This document shows, one piece after another, positions 11,394 through 36,749 of a DNA stretch of 64,000 nucleotides (positions within the stretch are counted from its first letter, which is position 1; each line of letters begins with the position of its first letter). The stretch lies in IMG/VR virus record IMGVR_UViG_3300020356_000001, positions 1-64,000 of that record, one strand, 5' to 3'. The notes beneath the pieces are model-generated. The model saw only the letters and a list, made by a program, of their open reading frames with translations, had not been told where the DNA came from and ran no database searches. The position numbers were made by a program, and so were the translations under genes. The DNA is from a virus (Duplodnaviria; Caudoviricetes).

Positions 11394-11567
11394 TTATTCA
11401 TCCTTTGATTCCCAGTCGCTAATAAGATTAGACATCATGTTCATCGCGTCTTGAGGATCTTCAAAAAGTTCCCTGACACGGTTATCTTGAATAACCGCCC
11501 AGTGGAAGTATCCAACATGATCTAAGACCTTTTTCACTTCTACTTTTGTTTTGAGGTTGGTATTCAT
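11394..11567 (-). CDS. Hypothetical protein (57 aa; not in ORF track)
   Basis: MNTNLKTKVEVKKVLDHVGYFHWAVIQDNRV...; stop abuts the TerS start; TACAAT just upstream. Confidence 0.55.
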   Translation of the reverse strand: MNTNLKTKVEVKKVLDHVGYFHWAVIQDNRVRELFEDPQDAMNMMSNLISDWESKDE

Positions 11568-11569
11568 AT

Positions 11570-12100
11570 GACATCTATTGTATGCGATAAGTGTCCCATT
11601 CGGGCATTCATAATAAAGATAGCACTATCTGAAATACATATCAAAAACTTTGTAAAAGATCGGGACAAAACAACTATACTGTAGTACTAGTACTTAGTAT
11701 CATCCTCAGCCCCTCAGGCAGAGGATGGTACTAGAATCCTTACTAAATCCCTTCGGCGCATACAGGCACCAAGTATGAGAAATATACAACCGCAGGGGAG
11801 TCTATGGGTATCTATACATATACTTAGAATCGTAGGGTACCCCCCGCAGGGGGGTGGGGTGCGGTGGTTCGGCGTGCGCGCGCGCTAGAGGTTCGTACTA
11901 CGTACGAAAAGCGCTAGAACTAAACGAAAATTGCCTCGCACACGCACGTATACGTACGCATAATGCACGGGCAAGCGGACATGCGGGAGACTCTGGCAAC
12001 CCTACGTAGTAGATGGTGGCTGGCTGGCTGGCTACTTCTCCTCTGAGTTATTTCCTCTTGAACGAAGTGAAAGAGGTAAATAACCTCAGAAGGAGAAAAG
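11570..12100. promoter_or_regulatory. Divergent control region / probable genome-end region of phage A
   Basis: Non-coding gap between divergent operons; ACCCCCC-GCA-GGGGGGT hairpin at 11839-11855; GC-rich tract; (TGGC)4 at 12017-12032. Confidence 0.6.
12036..12097 (+). promoter_or_regulatory. Conserved-loop hairpin 1 (loop TGAACGAAGTGAA, 12059-12071)
   Basis: ~22-bp imperfect stem whose 3' arm contains the AGGAG RBS of 12102. Confidence 0.8.
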
Positions 12101-12101
12101 A

Positions 12102-12428
12102 ATGAAAAACGAAAATGTGGAAATTTTGAATCTCGGTTCAGCATCGGGGATTCGCTATGAACTTCGGATCATAAGAGATGAAGTTACGCCTACAACTCCG
12201 AAGGAGTCGGTTCGTCCTGTTGTGAAGATGACGAAGGCTGACCGTAAGGTCAAGAATCAGAAGTTAATGCGTAGCATTAATGGGAAGTTGGCGGCTGCTA
12301 CTAAGGCGACTGATAAGGCTAAAGCCTTGGTGTTCTTGAAGGATGCTCAGGCTTTGACTCCAGCAAACTGGAGTGGTGTTCAGGCTCAGATAGAGCGCAA
12401 GTATGTGGCTCTGGGACTAGGTAACTAG
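12102..12428 (+). CDS. Early basic protein (paralog of 13713-14081)
   Basis: RKVKNQKLMRSINGKLAAATKA vs RKAHNQRLNRKINGMLANATKA. Confidence 0.75.
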   Translation: MKNENVEILNLGSASGIRYELRIIRDEVTPTTPKESVRPVVKMTKADRKVKNQKLMRSINGKLAAATKATDKAKALVFLKDAQALTPANWSGVQAQIERKYVALGLGN

Positions 12429-12602
12429 TCTCGGGGTTTGGTGTGGGTCGTGTGGATGCGATCAACTTTGTTCCAGTGTGAGAGATAACTGGTTAGACCC
12501 ACACTTTTACCTACGGTATTGTCTCCGATTTGACAGCCGTTCGGTTCGGACATATAATGTAAGGATGCGATTGCAAAAGTTGCTCTCGCCGAAAGGAAAA
12601 TA

Positions 12603-12830
12603 ATGAATACAGATACAAACACAACTACAGACACGATTGATGTCGAACCTAATTGGAAATTCATGAAAGAATTTACCAAGCGTGCTATATGCGAAGGCTC
12701 GATTGCAGGTGTAACCGTGACCGCAAAAGGGCGTGAGAATATGGAAGCCATGCTCGCCTCATATGAGGAAATTGTGGTCTACCTTGCTTCTGATGCAGGT
12801 CAAGCACGGGAGAAGGAAAGGGGGTTCTAA
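12603..12830 (+). CDS. Early hypothetical protein
   Basis: 75 aa with AAGGA RBS. Confidence 0.7.
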   Translation: MNTDTNTTTDTIDVEPNWKFMKEFTKRAICEGSIAGVTVTAKGRENMEAMLASYEEIVVYLASDAGQAREKERGF

Positions 12831-12885
12831 GTCTTAATAAAATCTCTTTGAACAAAGTGAAAAGAGATTTTTTAAGAACTTAGAA
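12825..12885 (+). promoter_or_regulatory. Conserved-loop hairpin 2 (loop TGAACAAAGTGAA, 12849-12861)
   Basis: ~24-bp imperfect stem; precedes 12905. Confidence 0.8.
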
Positions 12886-12904
12886 TCTCAACGAAAGGAA
12901 ACAT

Positions 12905-13195
12905 ATGAAACAAAGCAATTTAGCAAATTTGGTAGACGATGCGTTCTATCATGGTGATGCTCAGGCATCAGGGTACAGGTGGACAGCCAAACGCCATCCT
13001 ATGTCTGTAATAATCACGCATCATTCGACACCTATGTTCAAGGTGTGGTTCTCAAACGTGGGTGGCATAAATGCCCATAGCGTTGAGGCTATAGACAGGG
13101 GTTACGGCTCCATGTCAGACAGGTGTGGAGTTCGTAGAATCACCGAAGGTGCCGGTGTTGGCATCGGATATAAGGAACTCTACGACGAGGAGTAA
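12905..13195 (+). CDS. Early hypothetical protein
   Basis: 96 aa with AAGGA RBS. Confidence 0.7.
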   Translation: MKQSNLANLVDDAFYHGDAQASGYRWTAKRHPMSVIITHHSTPMFKVWFSNVGGINAHSVEAIDRGYGSMSDRCGVRRITEGAGVGIGYKELYDEE

Positions 13196-13199
13196 AGTT

Positions 13200-13244
13200 T
13201 CGGTACTTAGTACTTTGAATGAAATGAAAAGTACTAAGTACCGA
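13200..13244 (+). promoter_or_regulatory. Conserved-loop hairpin 3 (loop TGAATGAAATGAA, 13216-13228)
   Basis: Perfect 16-bp stem TCGGTACTTAGTACTT/AAGTACTAAGTACCGA. Confidence 0.8.
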
Positions 13245-13296
13245 GTACTTTCTACAAAAAAAATCGTTGCGGCTTCGCCGCAGGAAGGAAATAACA

Positions 13297-13617
13297 ATGG
13301 AAACAATGCAAACACAATTACATAAGATTGCTCACCTGTTGTCATTCGATTATGACGCATACAAGGCTGTACCTAACATAAGTATTGGTATGAAGCGGGA
13401 AGCGTGGCGTTACGAGTTGTCTAACAACGAGCGTTTACGTTTGTATGGGGTGGACTTTAACGAATCGCCTATGCCGAATATGAAAACGGTTAAGGCATCA
13501 ATGGTACAGGAAGTACCTGCGTGGGGTATGACGTTGGTCGAGTATGAGCAATGGCACGCACAATCAGAGTTGGACGAGCAGGCGGCAGAGCCTGCCTATC
13601 TGCAAGAGGTGGCGTAA
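13297..13617 (+). CDS. Early hypothetical protein
   Basis: Likely start METMQ after an AAGGA RBS. Confidence 0.7.
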   Translation: METMQTQLHKIAHLLSFDYDAYKAVPNISIGMKREAWRYELSNNERLRLYGVDFNESPMPNMKTVKASMVQEVPAWGMTLVEYEQWHAQSELDEQAAEPAYLQEVA

Positions 13618-13631
13618 GCGAAGATCGGAGT

Positions 13632-13689
13632 ACTGACTCTTAATAAATCTCTTTGAACAAAGTGAAAAGAGATTGATTAAGAAGTCAGT
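13632..13689 (+). promoter_or_regulatory. Conserved-loop hairpin 4 (loop TGAACAAAGTGAA, 13654-13666)
   Basis: ~22-bp imperfect stem; precedes 13713. Confidence 0.8.
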
Positions 13690-13712
13690 CTAAGAAAATA
13701 GCAGGAGGTGCT

Positions 13713-14081
13713 ATGAGTAAAATGCAAAGCAGGATTGCGTTCGAGGGTGGTCACATTGATCTACCTGAGGGTGTGGTTTTGTCCGCAAAAGAGGAGCAAC
13801 TGATCGCTGCTGCACTTAAGGGTGTGATGGTGGACAGTTCTCAAACAGCGCAGGCTGAGGTAAGTAAATTACCTAGAGCCCAGCGCAAAGCACATAACCA
13901 ACGGCTGAATCGTAAGATCAACGGCATGTTGGCTAATGCAACCAAAGCGAGCAATGGCACGATTAAAGGTGGTGACAATAAGGTACGTGAGTATCTTAAT
14001 AACGCCGCTAAAGCATGCCCTTCGCATTGGGATAGTGTGCGCATTCGTATCGAGAATAAAAGGCTTGCCCTTTTAGGTTGA
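13713..14081 (+). CDS. Early basic protein (paralog of 12102-12428)
   Basis: AGGAGG RBS; shared C-terminal domain. Confidence 0.75.
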   Translation: MSKMQSRIAFEGGHIDLPEGVVLSAKEEQLIAAALKGVMVDSSQTAQAEVSKLPRAQRKAHNQRLNRKINGMLANATKASNGTIKGGDNKVREYLNNAAKACPSHWDSVRIRIENKRLALLG

Positions 14082-14154
14082 TGCGAGGTGGGTGCCAGCA
14101 GGAATTTGTAACTCCTGTATAGCAGGCGAGACAGCATTGCGACTGTCTTCCTGC

Positions 14155-14293
14155 TTGGTAGGGGTATAGTCGAAGTCAAGTGAGATATCTCTTGACGAGG
14201 GATGCAGGAGGACACTTTAAGAGGGCAATTCGCTTACTGAATTAAGCGAAACGACTGTCTTTTGATTGATCGGGTTCGAATCCCGACTACCCA
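14155..14293 (+). ncRNA. tRNA-like structured RNA (acceptor + long central domain + T-arm; no D-arm)
   Basis: T-arm TCGGG-TTCGAAT-CCCGA at 14270-14286; TTGGTAG/CTACCCA acceptor-like pairing; ATAGTCG/CGACTGT helix enclosing two hairpins. Confidence 0.5.
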
Positions 14294-14495
14294 CAATGCT
14301 ATGTGAGTAAGAGAACGTGACGGGTTAGCGCTCGTTAGGTGGAGTAGTACTGAGACACCAGCGTTGATGAAAACAAAGCAGGGGATACACATTTGATTCG
14401 ATAAGGAGATATCTTTATGTGGAATACACAGAACAGGGTACGAACATGCTCTCTACCGTCTGCTGTGGTTGTGTGTCCCCGACTTTTTCGCACAA

Positions 14496-14652
14496 GTTCT
14501 GCTAAAGCAGGAGTAATGGATGACTGTGGCGGTGTGCGCACGGTACTGGTCCCGAAGGGAGAATGTACTTGACCGAGTAGCAGAACAACATAATGGCAGG
14601 GTGCCAGTAAATACGGGGTCTTTCATTCCCCTTCCTTCGCTGGCATCCTGCC
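14496..14652 (+). ncRNA. Conserved two-domain structured element, copy A
   Basis: 72 of ~75 core nt identical to 47777-47929; covarying terminal stem; second hairpin with shared AATACGGGG. Confidence 0.75.
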
Positions 14653-14683
14653 TGTTACAACAGTTCACTAGGAGGTGAAGATT

Positions 14684-14896
14684 ATGCCATCATTGGCAAG
14701 TAAAAAAGTTAAAGCGTTCATACGTTTCGAGTATGAAACTGAAATGATTATTGACATGCCCGCAGAGGAAAGTGTTAGTTGCGTGAGAGATCATATTAAA
14801 GTTCCTTTGCCTGAAACTTTTGACAAGTTGGAGTGGATAGACACAGTTGTGTACAGGGCAGAGGGTGTGGATACTAATGAAATATGGGAGTTATAA
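14684..14896 (+). CDS. Hypothetical protein
   Basis: AGGAGG RBS; ATG at 14684. Confidence 0.65.
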   Translation: MPSLASKKVKAFIRFEYETEMIIDMPAEESVSCVRDHIKVPLPETFDKLEWIDTVVYRAEGVDTNEIWEL

Positions 14897-15154
14897 ATGT
14901 TATTAGCAGTTTATGAGGCTTACGCTAATTGCACGGCGGCAACTCCGTGCGAAGATAAAAGTTCGTTAACTATTAACGATTTCGTAGGCGAGGCATGGTG
15001 GTTTATCGCCGGTGTTCTCGTAACTGGATGGGTGTATGAACTCGTCAGACGTAAACGATTAAAGCGCTTACGTAAGAAGTCATACCGTTCAGGGTTGGAG
15101 GCATTACGTAATGTCACAGGCAACGTCTACGATGATAAGAAAGACAAACACTAG
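14897..15154 (+). CDS. Single-TM membrane protein
   Basis: AWWFIAGVLVTGWVYEL followed by a basic cluster. Confidence 0.7.
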   Translation: MLLAVYEAYANCTAATPCEDKSSLTINDFVGEAWWFIAGVLVTGWVYELVRRKRLKRLRKKSYRSGLEALRNVTGNVYDDKKDKH

Positions 15155-15164
15155 GAGGTGTGTG

Positions 15165-16193
15165 TTGAATTTAAGTACAATAGATAATCGTGCTGAACAT
15201 GAACACAACTGGATACAACGTGTTAATGATGCGTTGCCACGTTCTGTTCACGCACAAGCAACGGCTGTTGACGCAAACTTTGATGTCCTTTATGAGACAT
15301 TAGGGTGGCAACATCCAGACACTTCGCATTTTGTGTGGAATACATACAATCGAGGTGCATATAAGGGGCAACCAACCGATCAGGTTATTCTACGTGCAGA
15401 TAATTACCTGCCGATGGGTAACGTATCAGGTCAGTACCCTGACCGTGACGGGTATCGTCATGTCTACGATGTGTTAGAGGACATGTTCCCACAGAGTTGT
15501 GAGAGTGTGACCATGTACGGTGGTGGACAGCAAGTGGTTGTTGAGCAGGTGCTTAACGATGAAGAACCCATTGACTTAGGTGATGGTGATGTGTTGCAAC
15601 CTTTCATTTATACTCGTATGAGTTTGAATCAGGTTTGGAAAACTGAAATCATTCCTGTGTCTAAGCGTCTGGCGTGTGAGAACATGCTGGGTACTGGTGG
15701 TCACATCATTGGTGTGCGTGCTACTAAGAACCACGATCAGATTCTTTCGCAGAAAGTTGTGGAAGAATCACAAAAGCAAGGGTTGATTATCGCAAGGATG
15801 GCTCGTGTGATGAAAGATAAACCTTTCACAGACAACCAGTTCATGTCGATGATGGATTCGTTGTTGCCTTTATACACAGTGGTCGATGATGTCACTGAAC
15901 GTACTCGTCAGAACATATTGAATAAGCGTACTGCTATACGTCAAGCATGGAGACAAGAACATCCTAATATGTGGGGCGCATACAACGCTTTTCAAGGTGC
16001 TGAACAGCATCGAATAAACATCGGCAACTATGCCGGTACGAACAAACAGTTTCGTGTGCTGGGAGAAACAGTAACTGCACAGGAAAAGTGTTTGCTCAAA
16101 ACTTTAGATGCTAAGGGAACCAAGATAGCGGACGAGGCAGAGGCTTACTTACAAGGTCTGATTAGTTACGCTCACTCAGAAGAACCTTTTTAA
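15165..16193 (+). CDS. DUF932/DUF945-like phage/plasmid protein
   Basis: RLACENML, RATKNHD and NMWGAYNAFQGAEQH motifs; start placed after AGGAGG. Confidence 0.7.
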   Translation: MNLSTIDNRAEHEHNWIQRVNDALPRSVHAQATAVDANFDVLYETLGWQHPDTSHFVWNTYNRGAYKGQPTDQVILRADNYLPMGNVSGQYPDRDGYRHVYDVLEDMFPQSCESVTMYGGGQQVVVEQVLNDEEPIDLGDGDVLQPFIYTRMSLNQVWKTEIIPVSKRLACENMLGTGGHIIGVRATKNHDQILSQKVVEESQKQGLIIARMARVMKDKPFTDNQFMSMMDSLLPLYTVVDDVTERTRQNILNKRTAIRQAWRQEHPNMWGAYNAFQGAEQHRINIGNYAGTNKQFRVLGETVTAQEKCLLKTLDAKGTKIADEAEAYLQGLISYAHSEEPF

Positions 16194-19738: not shown

Positions 19739-20735
19739 TGAAATAAGTCTTGAGGATGCGCAAGCACTCATAGCAGGGGCGGGAGCAACCGCGGCTCCCG
19801 TTCCTGCGCCACCCTCGGAGCCTCCAGCAGAAATAGAGGGGATATCATCTGCTGATCTACAAAGATTATTTACACCTAAAAAAGAACAGGTGCGCCGTAT
19901 GCGGCACGACCTGCAAGTAGGTAACGAATGGTCATTTGGAGTTCGTGCGTTTGATGATGCCACATTAGGTGGTGCAAGAGGCGGTCAACTTGTGACCGTC
20001 ATAGGTAGATCACACACAGGTAAAACTTTACTTGCGTTAAACATGGTGGCACGTAATCGTAACCATCGAACCTTATGGGTAAGCCCTGATGAAACAGAAA
20101 CAATGTTTTGGGGTAGATACGCAGCCATCAGGTTAGACACAGACCAGAAAGAATGGATCAACAAACTGATCCGTGAAGATCCAAAGGCATGGGAACGAGT
20201 AGAAGAAATAATGCGGAAAGATACCAACCTGCATTTTGAATCCACTGGAATGACAGTTGATGATCTAGATAAAGCAATGCGTATCGCATCAGTGGAACTA
20301 TGGGATGGGCAAAGACCAGACGTAATCGTGTACGACTACCTTGAATTGATAAGAGGTGGAGGAGCAGGAGATGCGGCAAGTGTGCAAGCAAAAATAGAAT
20401 CCTTCAAACAACTAGTCTCTGACTGGCGTGTTGTAGGCGTAATGTTGCACCAGTCTGGGCGTGGTTCAGGTAATCGCGGTAAAGCAGGTGGCATAGAAGC
20501 AGGGCGTTACGCATCCACAAGTGAAAGCCATTTTCTTATAGAAACATGGCGCAGATGGGATGACACTAACCTTGAAGATGAGGTTCGTCACCATTACGAA
20601 GATGAAATTAGCGTAGGCTTATGGAAGAACAAATCAGGGGACGGCGAAAAAGCAGAAACTAACCTAAGAATAGGATCAAGCGGACGCTTGTTAGAACCCG
20701 GAATTGTGTGGGAGCAGATGAATTTCGATGAGTGA
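19731..20735 (+). CDS. DnaB-like SF4 replicative helicase
   Basis: GRSHTGKT Walker A, VIVYDYLELI Walker B, LHQ motif; probable TTG start at 19731 after AAGGA. Confidence 0.8.
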   Translation: MPDEISLEDAQALIAGAGATAAPVPAPPSEPPAEIEGISSADLQRLFTPKKEQVRRMRHDLQVGNEWSFGVRAFDDATLGGARGGQLVTVIGRSHTGKTLLALNMVARNRNHRTLWVSPDETETMFWGRYAAIRLDTDQKEWINKLIREDPKAWERVEEIMRKDTNLHFESTGMTVDDLDKAMRIASVELWDGQRPDVIVYDYLELIRGGGAGDAASVQAKIESFKQLVSDWRVVGVMLHQSGRGSGNRGKAGGIEAGRYASTSESHFLIETWRRWDDTNLEDEVRHHYEDEISVGLWKNKSGDGEKAETNLRIGSSGRLLEPGIVWEQMNFDE

Positions 20736-21753
20736 TTTAATAAATACATTTGGGTTACTGTTCAGGGGTTTCATGTCAGCACATGGAACAGATGAAGGTG
20801 GATGTAAATGGGCGATAGTAAATCGCACAACATTTGAACGTCACATATCAGGCGAAGAAATGATTGGGATTTACCCAATGGTTTACAACCCTGAAAATAC
20901 AACAGCAGAATTTAACTGGGAAGAAAACGAAGATAATAACCGTTATTATCCAGATATGCAGCCAGACTTATGGCATTGCAAGTGGGGTGCTATAGACATA
21001 GACGAAGGAGATGACTCACTAGTCTTAGCAAAGAATGTGAGTGTGGTCTTGTCAGCATTAAACATTCCTAGTTGGGTGGAACTATCCAGAAGTAAAGGAT
21101 GTCACGTATGGATCTTCAATCAACAATGGACACGTTCATCTGTTATGCGCAGAGCAATGAAAAGCGCATTGCAACTATTAGAAATACCTTACGATGCTGT
21201 CTACCCTAAACAAGATTCACTGATGGGACCGCCCGGAAATTACATGCGTATCCCTTATGGTGGGAAACGACCAGAAGGCAGACAAGAAGTTTTTGATTCA
21301 GAAGGCGAACGCTTAACTCTTGAACAATTCGTTGAACAAGCAGACAACAATCGTGCATCTTTAGAAGCAATAGAACACGCCGCAACCCTGTATAAAGAAC
21401 CACAACCAGTGGTTCCAGACTTGCCACCTAAACGAGACTACAACAAAGAACCATTAATGAACCCTGATGGGTCACGCTTACGTGGACTATCATCACAAAT
21501 GTTTGATAATGGACCCGTCCCGTACTACAAAGAACAAGGAGCAGGCAGAGGCAGACACGGATTTCTCAACAGATTTGCACGATCTATGTTTGAATCCGGC
21601 TATAACCATGTTGATGTCGTATCATGGACTAAAGACTTAGACTCAAGGTTAGGACAGTGGTGGGATGACGGACCAAAATTCCAAGGCAGGCACGACTGCG
21701 AAAGACAAATCGAAAGACTTGTCCAAGAAGCAAAGCAAAGAGCAGCCAAGTGA
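20728..21753 (+). CDS. Archaeo-eukaryotic-type primase (AEP) with helical C-terminal domain
   Basis: AIDIDEG (DxD), SRSKGCHVW motif II, YMRIPY motif III; adjacent to the helicase. Confidence 0.75.
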   Translation: MSDLINTFGLLFRGFMSAHGTDEGGCKWAIVNRTTFERHISGEEMIGIYPMVYNPENTTAEFNWEENEDNNRYYPDMQPDLWHCKWGAIDIDEGDDSLVLAKNVSVVLSALNIPSWVELSRSKGCHVWIFNQQWTRSSVMRRAMKSALQLLEIPYDAVYPKQDSLMGPPGNYMRIPYGGKRPEGRQEVFDSEGERLTLEQFVEQADNNRASLEAIEHAATLYKEPQPVVPDLPPKRDYNKEPLMNPDGSRLRGLSSQMFDNGPVPYYKEQGAGRGRHGFLNRFARSMFESGYNHVDVVSWTKDLDSRLGQWWDDGPKFQGRHDCERQIERLVQEAKQRAAK

Positions 21754-36440: not shown

Positions 36441-36749
36441 TTATTCGGCTGCCTTTGCTGCTGCTGTAGGAGGATCATCAGGCCAAACAACTTCGGACAC
36501 CTTGCTAAAACTAGCAGGTAAGTCACGTAGTTCTTGTCTGTATGTCGCCCATTCCTCAGCGGTATGATCGCCTAATGTTGCGTCTGCTATTTGAGTCCAG
36601 TCACAATCACGCAACAATGCGTTACGATGCACTCTGGTAAAAGTGAAATCCAGATCCATTGCTGTGGCTCTATCTTCCATTTCTTTTATTTCTTCTGCCG
36701 TGAGTTCGATGTACTCACCGTTCACGACCTTATATCTTGGTTCTGCCAT
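36441..36749 (-). CDS. Tail fiber assembly-like protein
   Basis: RNALLRDCDWTQIAD...WATYRQELRDLP...WPDDP. Confidence 0.8.
   Translation of the reverse strand: MAEPRYKVVNGEYIELTAEEIKEMEDRATAMDLDFTFTRVHRNALLRDCDWTQIADATLGDHTAEEWATYRQELRDLPASFSKVSEVVWPDDPPTAAAKAAE

Follow-up and report, generated by a model that had tools for sequence, protein, structure and literature searches.

The window analysed here comprises bases 1-64000 of the 81,361-bp IMG/VR virus record IMGVR_UViG_3300020356_000001 (Caudoviricetes) and contains four long hairpins, H1 to H4, in the gaps of an early operon on the plus strand. All four are topped by the same cap, a small structured motif built around invariant tandem G.A pairs. 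On comparative sequence grounds, the capped hairpin is a real, uncatalogued element under selection. Its most likely role is in the processing or translational control of the early message.

Four capped hairpins in the window

H1: 12036..12097, plus strand; cap at 12059-12071 (TGAACGAAGTGAA); 24 pairs, minimum free energy (MFE) -30 kcal/mol, z -5.5
H2: 12826..12884, plus strand; cap at 12849-12861 (TGAACAAAGTGAA); follows the stop codon of open reading frame (ORF) 12603-12830
H3: 13194..13251, plus strand; cap at 13216-13228 (TGAATGAAATGAA); perfect 17-bp upper stem, z -9.5
H4: 13629..13691, plus strand; cap at 13654-13666 (TGAACAAAGTGAA); between ORF 13297-13617 and ORF 13713

A preliminary description of this DNA reported four copies of one 13-nt loop, each topping a long hairpin, and the copies are confirmed as exact matches to the consensus TGAAYRAARTGAA. 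They begin at 12059, 12849, 13216, and 13654, all on the plus strand, and there are no others in the 81,361-bp record; a reversed control pattern has no exact copies anywhere in it. When one mismatch is allowed, there are 5 matches against 1.18 expected, a number reached in 0 of 100 shuffles. Each of the four copies tops a hairpin of 22-28 pairs with a predicted RNA MFE of -23 to -30 kcal/mol and z scores of -5.5 to -9.5, and none of 200 shuffles equalled them. An unbiased scan for perfect stems of at least 9 bp finds about ten places in 81 kb, three of which are these hairpins. H1 to H4 also fold as DNA.

The stems are partly or wholly different, as had been described, with the exception that H2 is an 88% copy of H4. 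The single 3' bulge noted earlier as common to three stems is present once each in H2, H3, and H4, but H2 and H4 also carry one mismatch and H1 contains three bulges, all in the 3' arm. The hairpins occupy the gaps of a plus-strand operon of small ORFs at 12102, 12603, 12905, 13297, and 13713, and they end 5-46 nt upstream of the start codons of ORFs 12102, 12905, 13297, and 13713. H1 forms the leader of the first early gene and, as first noticed in the preliminary description, holds the AGGAG of ORF 12102 inside its 3' arm. The 5' edge of H3 falls within the stop codon of ORF 12905-13195.

Structure and conservation of the cap

Further copies were collected from an IMG/VR pattern scan, which yielded G001-G005, and from loci located through the terminase and through a conserved early protein of 360 aa. 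The same top sits on long hairpins with different stems in G001-G005, and the full set contains 41 distinct copies, with 40 distinct rows in the covariation alignment (A3). The aligned structure consists of 14 stem pairs, two G.A positions, two inner pairs, and the loop. In this alignment 95.5% of cells are paired and compensatory changes occur at 16 of 16 pairs; 0 of 500 shuffles did as well, and slid partners are only 41-52% paired.

Cap positions G2, A3, G11, and A12 are invariant in the 40 distinct copies. The inner pairs covary: at 4-10, 39 copies have A-U and one has G-C; at 5-9, 32 have C-G and 8, H3 among them, have U-A. Since 4-10 and 5-9 change as pairs, the helix continues through the G.A pairs. 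The loop centre is variable and reads GAA, AAA, GTA, ATA, GGA, or TCT, or the four bases TAAA, GTTA, or TTTA, and about 70% of loops are of the GNA or GNNA type. Judged from this alignment, the supposed open 13-nt loop is instead a structured cap composed of a closing pair, tandem G.A/A.G pairs, two normal pairs, and a triloop or tetraloop, with only the central 3-4 nt free to vary.

Below the cap, which contributes 4 pairs, the stem has a median of 20 pairs. Thirteen copies are perfect. Of the 28 imperfect ones, 22 have their first irregularity 9-14 pairs below the cap, with a peak at 13 pairs and often as a T.T. The first 14 pairs contain 10 G.T against 2 A.C, which indicates that G.U is tolerated. 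The arms are biased in composition, the 5' arms being 71% pyrimidine and the 3' arms 71% purine.

The preliminary description staked its case on a loop conserved in related phages and placed non-randomly with respect to gene starts, and both are borne out: the same cap recurs on unrelated stems in 40 distinct copies, and 41 of 41 copies are intergenic and sense-oriented, with a non-random placement in front of early genes. Measured from the hairpin centre, the previous stop codon lies about 23-47 nt before and the next start codon about 50-80 nt after. Five copies that precede a first gene lie closer to it, with the start codon 32-44 nt from the centre and the ribosome site consequently within the 3' arm.

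Other tops are also seen on long hairpins of the relatives. Watson-Crick sister caps (CCCC-CTCATTTATGAG-GGGG, TCAC-GTA-GTGA, and TCAC-GAA-GTGA) precede the first ORF1-family gene in several relatives (L135 2139-2171, L155 4833-4869, L157 4678-5575, L056, L096, L115, and L163); their 3' half, RTGA, is constant and their 5' half alternates between GAAY and TCAY. Early regions of relatives also contain long hairpins with (TC)n/(GA)n stems and TCTTTT loops, long hairpins with GC-rich stems and loops of TGAAG or TAAAG, and arrays in which 17-23-bp hairpins with 3-4-nt loops stand back to back (L159 3227-3541, L162 3758-4041, and L163 136-396). These further classes, surveyed in L137, L139-L146, and L153-L162, show the same arm bias as the capped hairpins. 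Because other loop classes stand on equally long stems in the same gaps, the long helix is the common denominator.

Proposed role in early message processing

H1 to H4 are interpreted here, with about an even chance of being right, as intercistronic RNA hairpins of a host-transcribed early operon that act as cut-and-protect and translation-gating sites. Host RNA polymerase would read the early operon through the hairpins, and the 20-30-bp helix would be long enough for a host enzyme of the RNase III type to cut its lower stem, the part in which mismatches or bulges recur 9-14 pairs below the cap. The capped hairpin would be left as a protective 3' end on the upstream message, and cleavage would free the downstream gene's ribosome site, buried in the 3' arm of the first-gene copies. 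The invariant G.A pairs may serve recognition or positioning by a factor that is widely shared and probably of host origin. There is precedent for both outcomes: RNase III cuts T7 early mRNAs at intercistronic hairpins, and its cutting of the lambda N leader relieves a buried ribosome site.

That the hairpins act as RNA is suggested by their sense-only orientation, by their ties to stop codons, start codons, and ribosome sites, and by the way they travel with particular downstream genes. Tolerance of G.U, a helix of RNase III size, the presence of other loop classes in the same slots, and host-type promoters argue in the same direction. Transcription by the host enzyme is in turn suggested by a perfect sigma-70 promoter that is kept in a relative, by a gene resembling sigma region 4, and by the failure to detect a T7-type RNA polymerase.

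Several points weigh against this interpretation. RNase III needs no conserved cap, so cutting and protection leave the invariant G.A pairs unexplained. The pyrimidine bias of the 5' arms and purine bias of the 3' arms (71%/71%) is not accounted for by processing, and no promoter was identified upstream of H1. C-GNA-G and GNNA loops and Y-GA-R tandem G.A pairs are typical of very stable DNA mini-hairpins, and the RNA forms are much weaker (PMC13037366). If the hairpins had been selected as RNA for a stable lid, GNRA or UUCG loops would be the expected choice.

The early operon and its promoter

ORF1a: 12102..12428, plus strand; first early gene, 108 aa, ORF1 family
Sigma-70 promoter: 12530..12558, plus strand; TTGACA-17-TATAAT, 12/12 consensus with a 17-bp spacer, kept in G005
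ORF2: 12603..12830, plus strand; 75 aa; absent, together with H2, from the relative G005
ORF3: 12905..13195, plus strand; 96 aa, downstream of H2
ORF4: 13297..13617, plus strand; 106 aa, downstream of H3
ORF1b: 13713..14081, plus strand; 122 aa, paralogue of ORF1a, downstream of H4

The ORF4 family has a capped hairpin upstream in five relatives. No promoter-like site lies between hairpin and gene start. In G005, a diverged copy of the sigma-70 promoter directly precedes the homologue of ORF 12905.

Two small features accompany the operon. On the minus strand between H3 and ORF 13297, a GCGGC-GAA-GCCGC hairpin followed by a T run (window 13268-13282) has a C-GAA-G triloop and looks like an intrinsic terminator of antisense transcription. 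The Shine-Dalgarno sequence GGAGG often lies exposed in a loop, on a short hairpin of 4-6 bp directly before the start codon, at 13699-13712 in the window and in many early genes of the relatives; examples are gcaGGAGGtgc and ttgactTGGAGGtcaa.

The phage and its record

From position 1 to about 36.7 kb (part A), the record shows gene-for-gene synteny with the complete 39-41-kb contigs G001 and G002, and the remainder is a different phage. The two are joined at a common 309-bp ORF, found at 36441-36749 and again at 81014-81322 with 95% amino acid identity. By its gene content and order, the 81-kb record seems to be a fusion of two different phage genomes of ~40 kb, so the CheckV value of "100% complete" describes the join and not a single genome. 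A 39,907-bp ENA contig (ERZ27286492, k119_1849887, L333) encodes an identical ORF 13713 protein in the same local gene order, and together with the synteny to G001 and G002 it assigns the hairpins to a podophage of about 40 kb.

Genes of this podophage include a split T4-type large terminase, a portal, a 2657-aa virion-type protein, a PD-(D/E)XK exonuclease, a DnaB-like helicase, a small sigma-region-4-like protein, an endolysin, and the following primase.

AEP-type primase: 20728-21753; Pfam AEP-TOTE, E 7.6e-16

No DNA polymerase gene was seen in the part-A phage. The terminase is only 54% identical to that of the nearest GenBank phage, and blastn with the hairpin region as query finds no match among GenBank phages. 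The family is uncultured, marine, and abundant, with at least 598 terminase-related loci, and the exact ORF1b protein turns up in 71 indexed blocks of the assembly collection.

Upstream of H1 lies a conserved non-coding block, which may represent a genome end, an origin, or a promoter region of an unusual kind. It contains a CCCCCC-GCA-GGGGGG hairpin (window 11840-11854) and a TTGCCTCGCAC...CGCATAATGC stretch (window 11930-11965), both of which recur in G001, G002, and G004. It is near this block that many related contigs end.

Spread beyond the phage family

A second IMG/VR scan, with CTCTGAAYRAARTGAAGAG, and the covariance model R1 recovered clusters of identical G.A-capped long hairpins in phage contigs that share no proteins with the window phage. 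These other-lineage loci (L300, L317, L323, L312, L295, and about 20 further IMG/VR loci) have 2-5 same-strand hairpins each, located between co-oriented small early ORFs in regions that encode an anti-restriction protein, a sigma factor, exonucleases, and a DNA polymerase. In loci with several capped hairpins, all are on one strand in 15 of 15 cases. No ORF1 homologue was found in the unrelated cap-bearing lineages.

The cap also occurs in bacteria. A bacterial genome scan shows the 19-mer CTCTGAACGAAGTGAAGAG at the top of a repeat, GTCACTCTGAACGAAGTGAAGAGTC, in at least 50 loci from many phyla, with hosts that include Ignavibacteria, Kapaibacteria, Chloroflexi, Patescibacteria, Omnitrophota, Desulfobacterota, and others. 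The repeat (L172-L291, for example L232, L243, and L253) has tandem G.A pairs in its stem, is multi-copy in some genomes, and is usually accompanied by an inverted partner, GTCATTCTGAGCGNAGCGAAGAATC, 20-45 nt away. A small GIY-YIG gene adjoins it in five loci. The preliminary proposal of a phage-specific system that recognizes structure plus loop is partly supported: a selected structure with a conserved top does exist, but unrelated phages and bacterial repeats share that top.

Rfam returned no match for window positions 11400-15200 at E values up to 1 and none for the bacterial look-alike repeats at the gathering score. Literature searched by motif sequence gave only coincidental primer matches.

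Alternative explanations

A signal in single-stranded DNA, the main alternative, is possible, if improbable. The plus-strand hairpin would form when that strand is single, for example as lagging-strand template of a fork leaving the non-coding block at ~11.7-12.0 kb, and would be read by a hairpin-specific DNA enzyme. The phage AEP-type primase, acting as at ssiA/ssiB of RSF1010, is one candidate, and an Ssn-like nuclease from the host is another. The cap corresponds to two well-known stable DNA motifs, GCGNAGC and GCGNNAGC (including GTTA), whose mini-hairpins melt at ~70-76 C as DNA, compared with 39 C for an RNA counterpart (PMC13037366). Such mini-hairpins occur in the G4/St-1 priming origins, RSF1010 ssiA, and the N4 promoters (PMC13037366). 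A G.A on one strand is a C.T on the other, which gives a good hairpin on the plus strand only, and the ability of H1-H4 to fold as DNA suits this explanation. So does the presence of the AEP primase and DnaB-like helicase in a phage with no polymerase seen. For an RNA function, by contrast, speak the association of the hairpins with particular downstream genes, the burial of ribosome sites in five cases, and the loop classes without DNA-type caps that fill equivalent gaps. No AEP-TOTE primase was found in five records of other cap-bearing lineages, which are only 26-60% complete.

The bacterial repeats bear on the nuclease version of this idea. Those topped by the 19-mer resemble NTS/SRM hairpins, which are cut as single-stranded DNA by small GIY-YIG Ssn nucleases (PMC11893778), and five of the loci have the GIY-YIG neighbour. 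The status of the bacterial G.A-capped repeat as an SRM rests on this resemblance and on these neighbours, and both it and the phage hairpins fail the published SRM pattern. The SRM consensus HGTCWY...RNCYNB, with its GTC flank 5' of a ~9-bp stem, has 0 matches in the whole record and none at the hairpins. The phage hairpins are without a GTCA flank and, unlike the bacterial repeats, are never seen as inverted pairs. PF01541 (GIY-YIG) has no match in the five phage records G000, G001, G002, G006, and G007, and the control was positive in 13 of 14 genomes.

A broader form of the idea is somewhat more doubtful still. It holds that the G.A cap is a strand-specific module common to phage early-operon hairpins and bacterial Ssn-like hairpins and is read by a widespread hairpin-specific enzyme acting on single-stranded nucleic acid. 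Phages of several lineages would plant such hairpins for this reader, which could be a host nuclease or a phage primase, and the purpose could be priming, nicking for recombination, or decoy or evasion of a host system.

A protein operator or antitermination site, in which a phage protein binds the cap groove widened by the G.A pairs, is quite unlikely; considered jointly with processing and gating, it brings the chance of an RNA function to somewhat better than even. The prime candidate for the binding protein is the basic helix of the ORF1 family, and the outcome would be ORF1 autoregulation or read-through of the early operon, as with lambda N-boxB or Rev-RRE. An ORF1-family gene directly follows 15-17 of the 41 capped hairpins, both window paralogues included, and the layout of a hairpin followed by the first gene mirrors nutL-N. 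In ORF1 proteins the N-terminus is variable, the linker is basic, and the C-terminal part is a conserved three-helix bundle that is confidently predicted (predicted local distance difference test, pLDDT, >90 for residues 45-103 of ORF1a); the basic helix is conserved and carries an invariant Asn. A fold search of ORF1 against the PDB gave no match at E up to 0.001 and only generic helical bundles, weak matches among them including ribosomal protein bS20 chains. A word-based homologue search with ORF1b gave only near-identical proteins without names.

A hidden Markov model of the ORF1 family finds 38 loci, nearly always with a long hairpin upstream, even where ORF1 is the first gene. The G.A cap is missing in 18 of the 38, where the upstream hairpin has a TCAY-loop-RTGA top or an unrelated one, and the conserved residues of the family show no co-variation with cap type. 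This counts against the earlier suggestion that the 12102 and 13713 products bind the cap, as do the unrelated cap-bearing lineages without an ORF1 homologue. A nut-like site, moreover, needs no 20-bp stem. A long hairpin thus belongs to the leader of ORF1 genes, but nothing indicates that the ORF1 protein reads the cap.

It is very unlikely that the hairpins are mainly recombination-prone module junctions, or selfish mobile elements, with little function beyond the shuffling of early-gene cassettes between phages. Gene content and order beside the hairpins do vary between relatives, as the preliminary description had asked of cassettes. Compared with the 93%-identical G005, the window phage has an extra block consisting of a promoter copy, ORF2, and H2, the near copy of H4, and G005 for its part has an extra 102-aa ORF that lies before H4 and ends in it. 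In G001 two hairpins with identical stems flank a block, the order of hairpin-plus-gene modules differs between G001 and G003, and in bacteria the look-alikes form dispersed repeats. Exchange between the window phage (G000) and G005, however, took place at gene starts and at no constant position within the hairpin, and no integrase, GIY-YIG gene, or attC-type core was found. Most copies in one genome have unrelated stems that stay paired through compensatory change, which indicates long-term structural selection and not recent copying.

Hairpin promoters of the N4 type, formed in DNA and read by a virion RNA polymerase for which the 2657-aa protein would be the candidate, are highly improbable. 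In their favour are three-base GNA-type loops with a C-G closing pair like that of N4 promoters (PMC13037366), the position of the hairpins where the early region begins, and the presence of a giant virion-type protein. The purine cap, on the other hand, is on the non-template strand for the downstream genes, whereas N4 promoters have a purine-centred 3-nt loop on the template strand, and with stems of 20 bp or more an N4-like start ~11 nt from the loop would fall inside the stem, the N4 stem being 5-7 bp. The 2657-aa protein has no Pfam or PDB sequence match and only a tail-fibre PHROG match. PF00940 (T7-type polymerase) has no match, a weak point in that control genomes gave none either, and the perfect sigma-70 promoter and sigma-like gene point to the host polymerase. 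The cruciform promoter put forward in the preliminary description is not supported, on the same grounds: the non-template purine cap, a sigma-70 promoter within the region, and no phage RNA polymerase detected.

Other identities were rejected. The attC-like cassette site that had also been suggested lacks both an integrase (no PF00589 in G000, G001, and G002; control positive in 14/14 genomes) and a GTTRRRY core of the RYYYAAC ... GTTRRRY type in any of the four hairpins. Likeness to a kink-turn, K-loop, or box C/D motif fails because there is no three-nucleotide bulge and 4-10 and 5-9 covary, and likeness to a hammerhead core (CUGA...GAA) fails because the UGA of CUGAUGA is missing. A sigma-70 promoter within the hairpins is not sustained, with a TTGAAC/GTGAAA -35 that is inconsistent across the four copies and one weak site only. 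A lambda boxA is not a general feature, as CTCTTAA occurs only in the 5' arms of H2 and H4.

The promoter-early stem-loop (PeSL) cassettes of T4-type phages, reportedly described by Arbiol et al. in 2010, are similar in that their stem-loops lie between small variable early genes and gene content changes beside them. In PeSL cassettes an early promoter follows the stem-loop. In the window, the hairpin and the start codon are just 5-46 nt apart, with no sigma-70 promoter between them.

Significance

The capped hairpin provides a searchable signature, namely a long helix with tandem G.A pairs, two covarying pairs, and a 3-4-nt loop, that is invariant over very divergent stems. Early operons time the take-over of the host, and the processing of their messages is little known outside T7, T4, and lambda. 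If the hairpin is an RNA processing or control site, it would be a marker for early transcription units in uncultured phages and add to the known sequence-specific hairpin caps. As a DNA signal, it would link phage genomes to the recently found world of Ssn hairpin nucleases and would have been hidden in what appear to be mRNA spacers.

Comparison with known systems

The Ssn targets NTS/SRM are similar to the extent that a bacterial repeat with SRM-like flanks (GTCA...GAGTC/GAATC) bears an identical 19-nt top (PMC11893778). The phage hairpins differ in having much longer stems, no GTCA flank, and no inverted pairs, and in belonging to phages in which no GIY-YIG gene was found. The DNA mini-hairpins d(GCGNAGC) and d(GCGNNAGC) are similar in the cap itself: the loops C-GAA-G, C-GTA-G, C-GGA-G, and T-GTTA-A allow sheared G.A pairs, and both share a phage setting and a strand-specific functional form (PMC13037366). 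Those mini-hairpins have short stems at origins or promoters, whereas the window hairpins are 20-30 bp long, stand between translated genes, and are tied to ribosome sites.

The intercistronic C(UUCG)G hairpins of T4 likewise place the same special small top on otherwise different stems. UUCG is an intrinsically very stable RNA tetraloop, whereas the window cap consists of G.A pairs and GNA triloops that are more typical of DNA. Watson-Crick pairs in place of the G.A pairs would be at least as stable.

The RNase III sites of T7 and T3 (R0.3, R0.5, R1, R1.1, and R1.3) and the lambda N leader share the most features with H1-H4. They too are long imperfect hairpins in the leader and intergenic regions of a host-transcribed early operon, with the first hairpin before the first gene, an irregularity part-way down the stem, and a ribosome site that is sometimes buried. 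As in T7, the hairpins here are intergenic and sense-oriented (41 of 41 copies, with H1-H4 between plus-strand ORFs), and their helix spans about two turns or more, in the 28 imperfect copies with an irregularity. The upper stem in the window phage is longer than in the T7 sites, at ~17 pairs from the loop to the first irregularity, and the T7 sites need no conserved apical motif, whereas the window hairpins keep an invariant tandem G.A cap across lineages. The capped hairpin is a new element, absent from Rfam and distinguished by its invariant G.A cap, and it is closest to the RNase III hairpins of the T7 early region.

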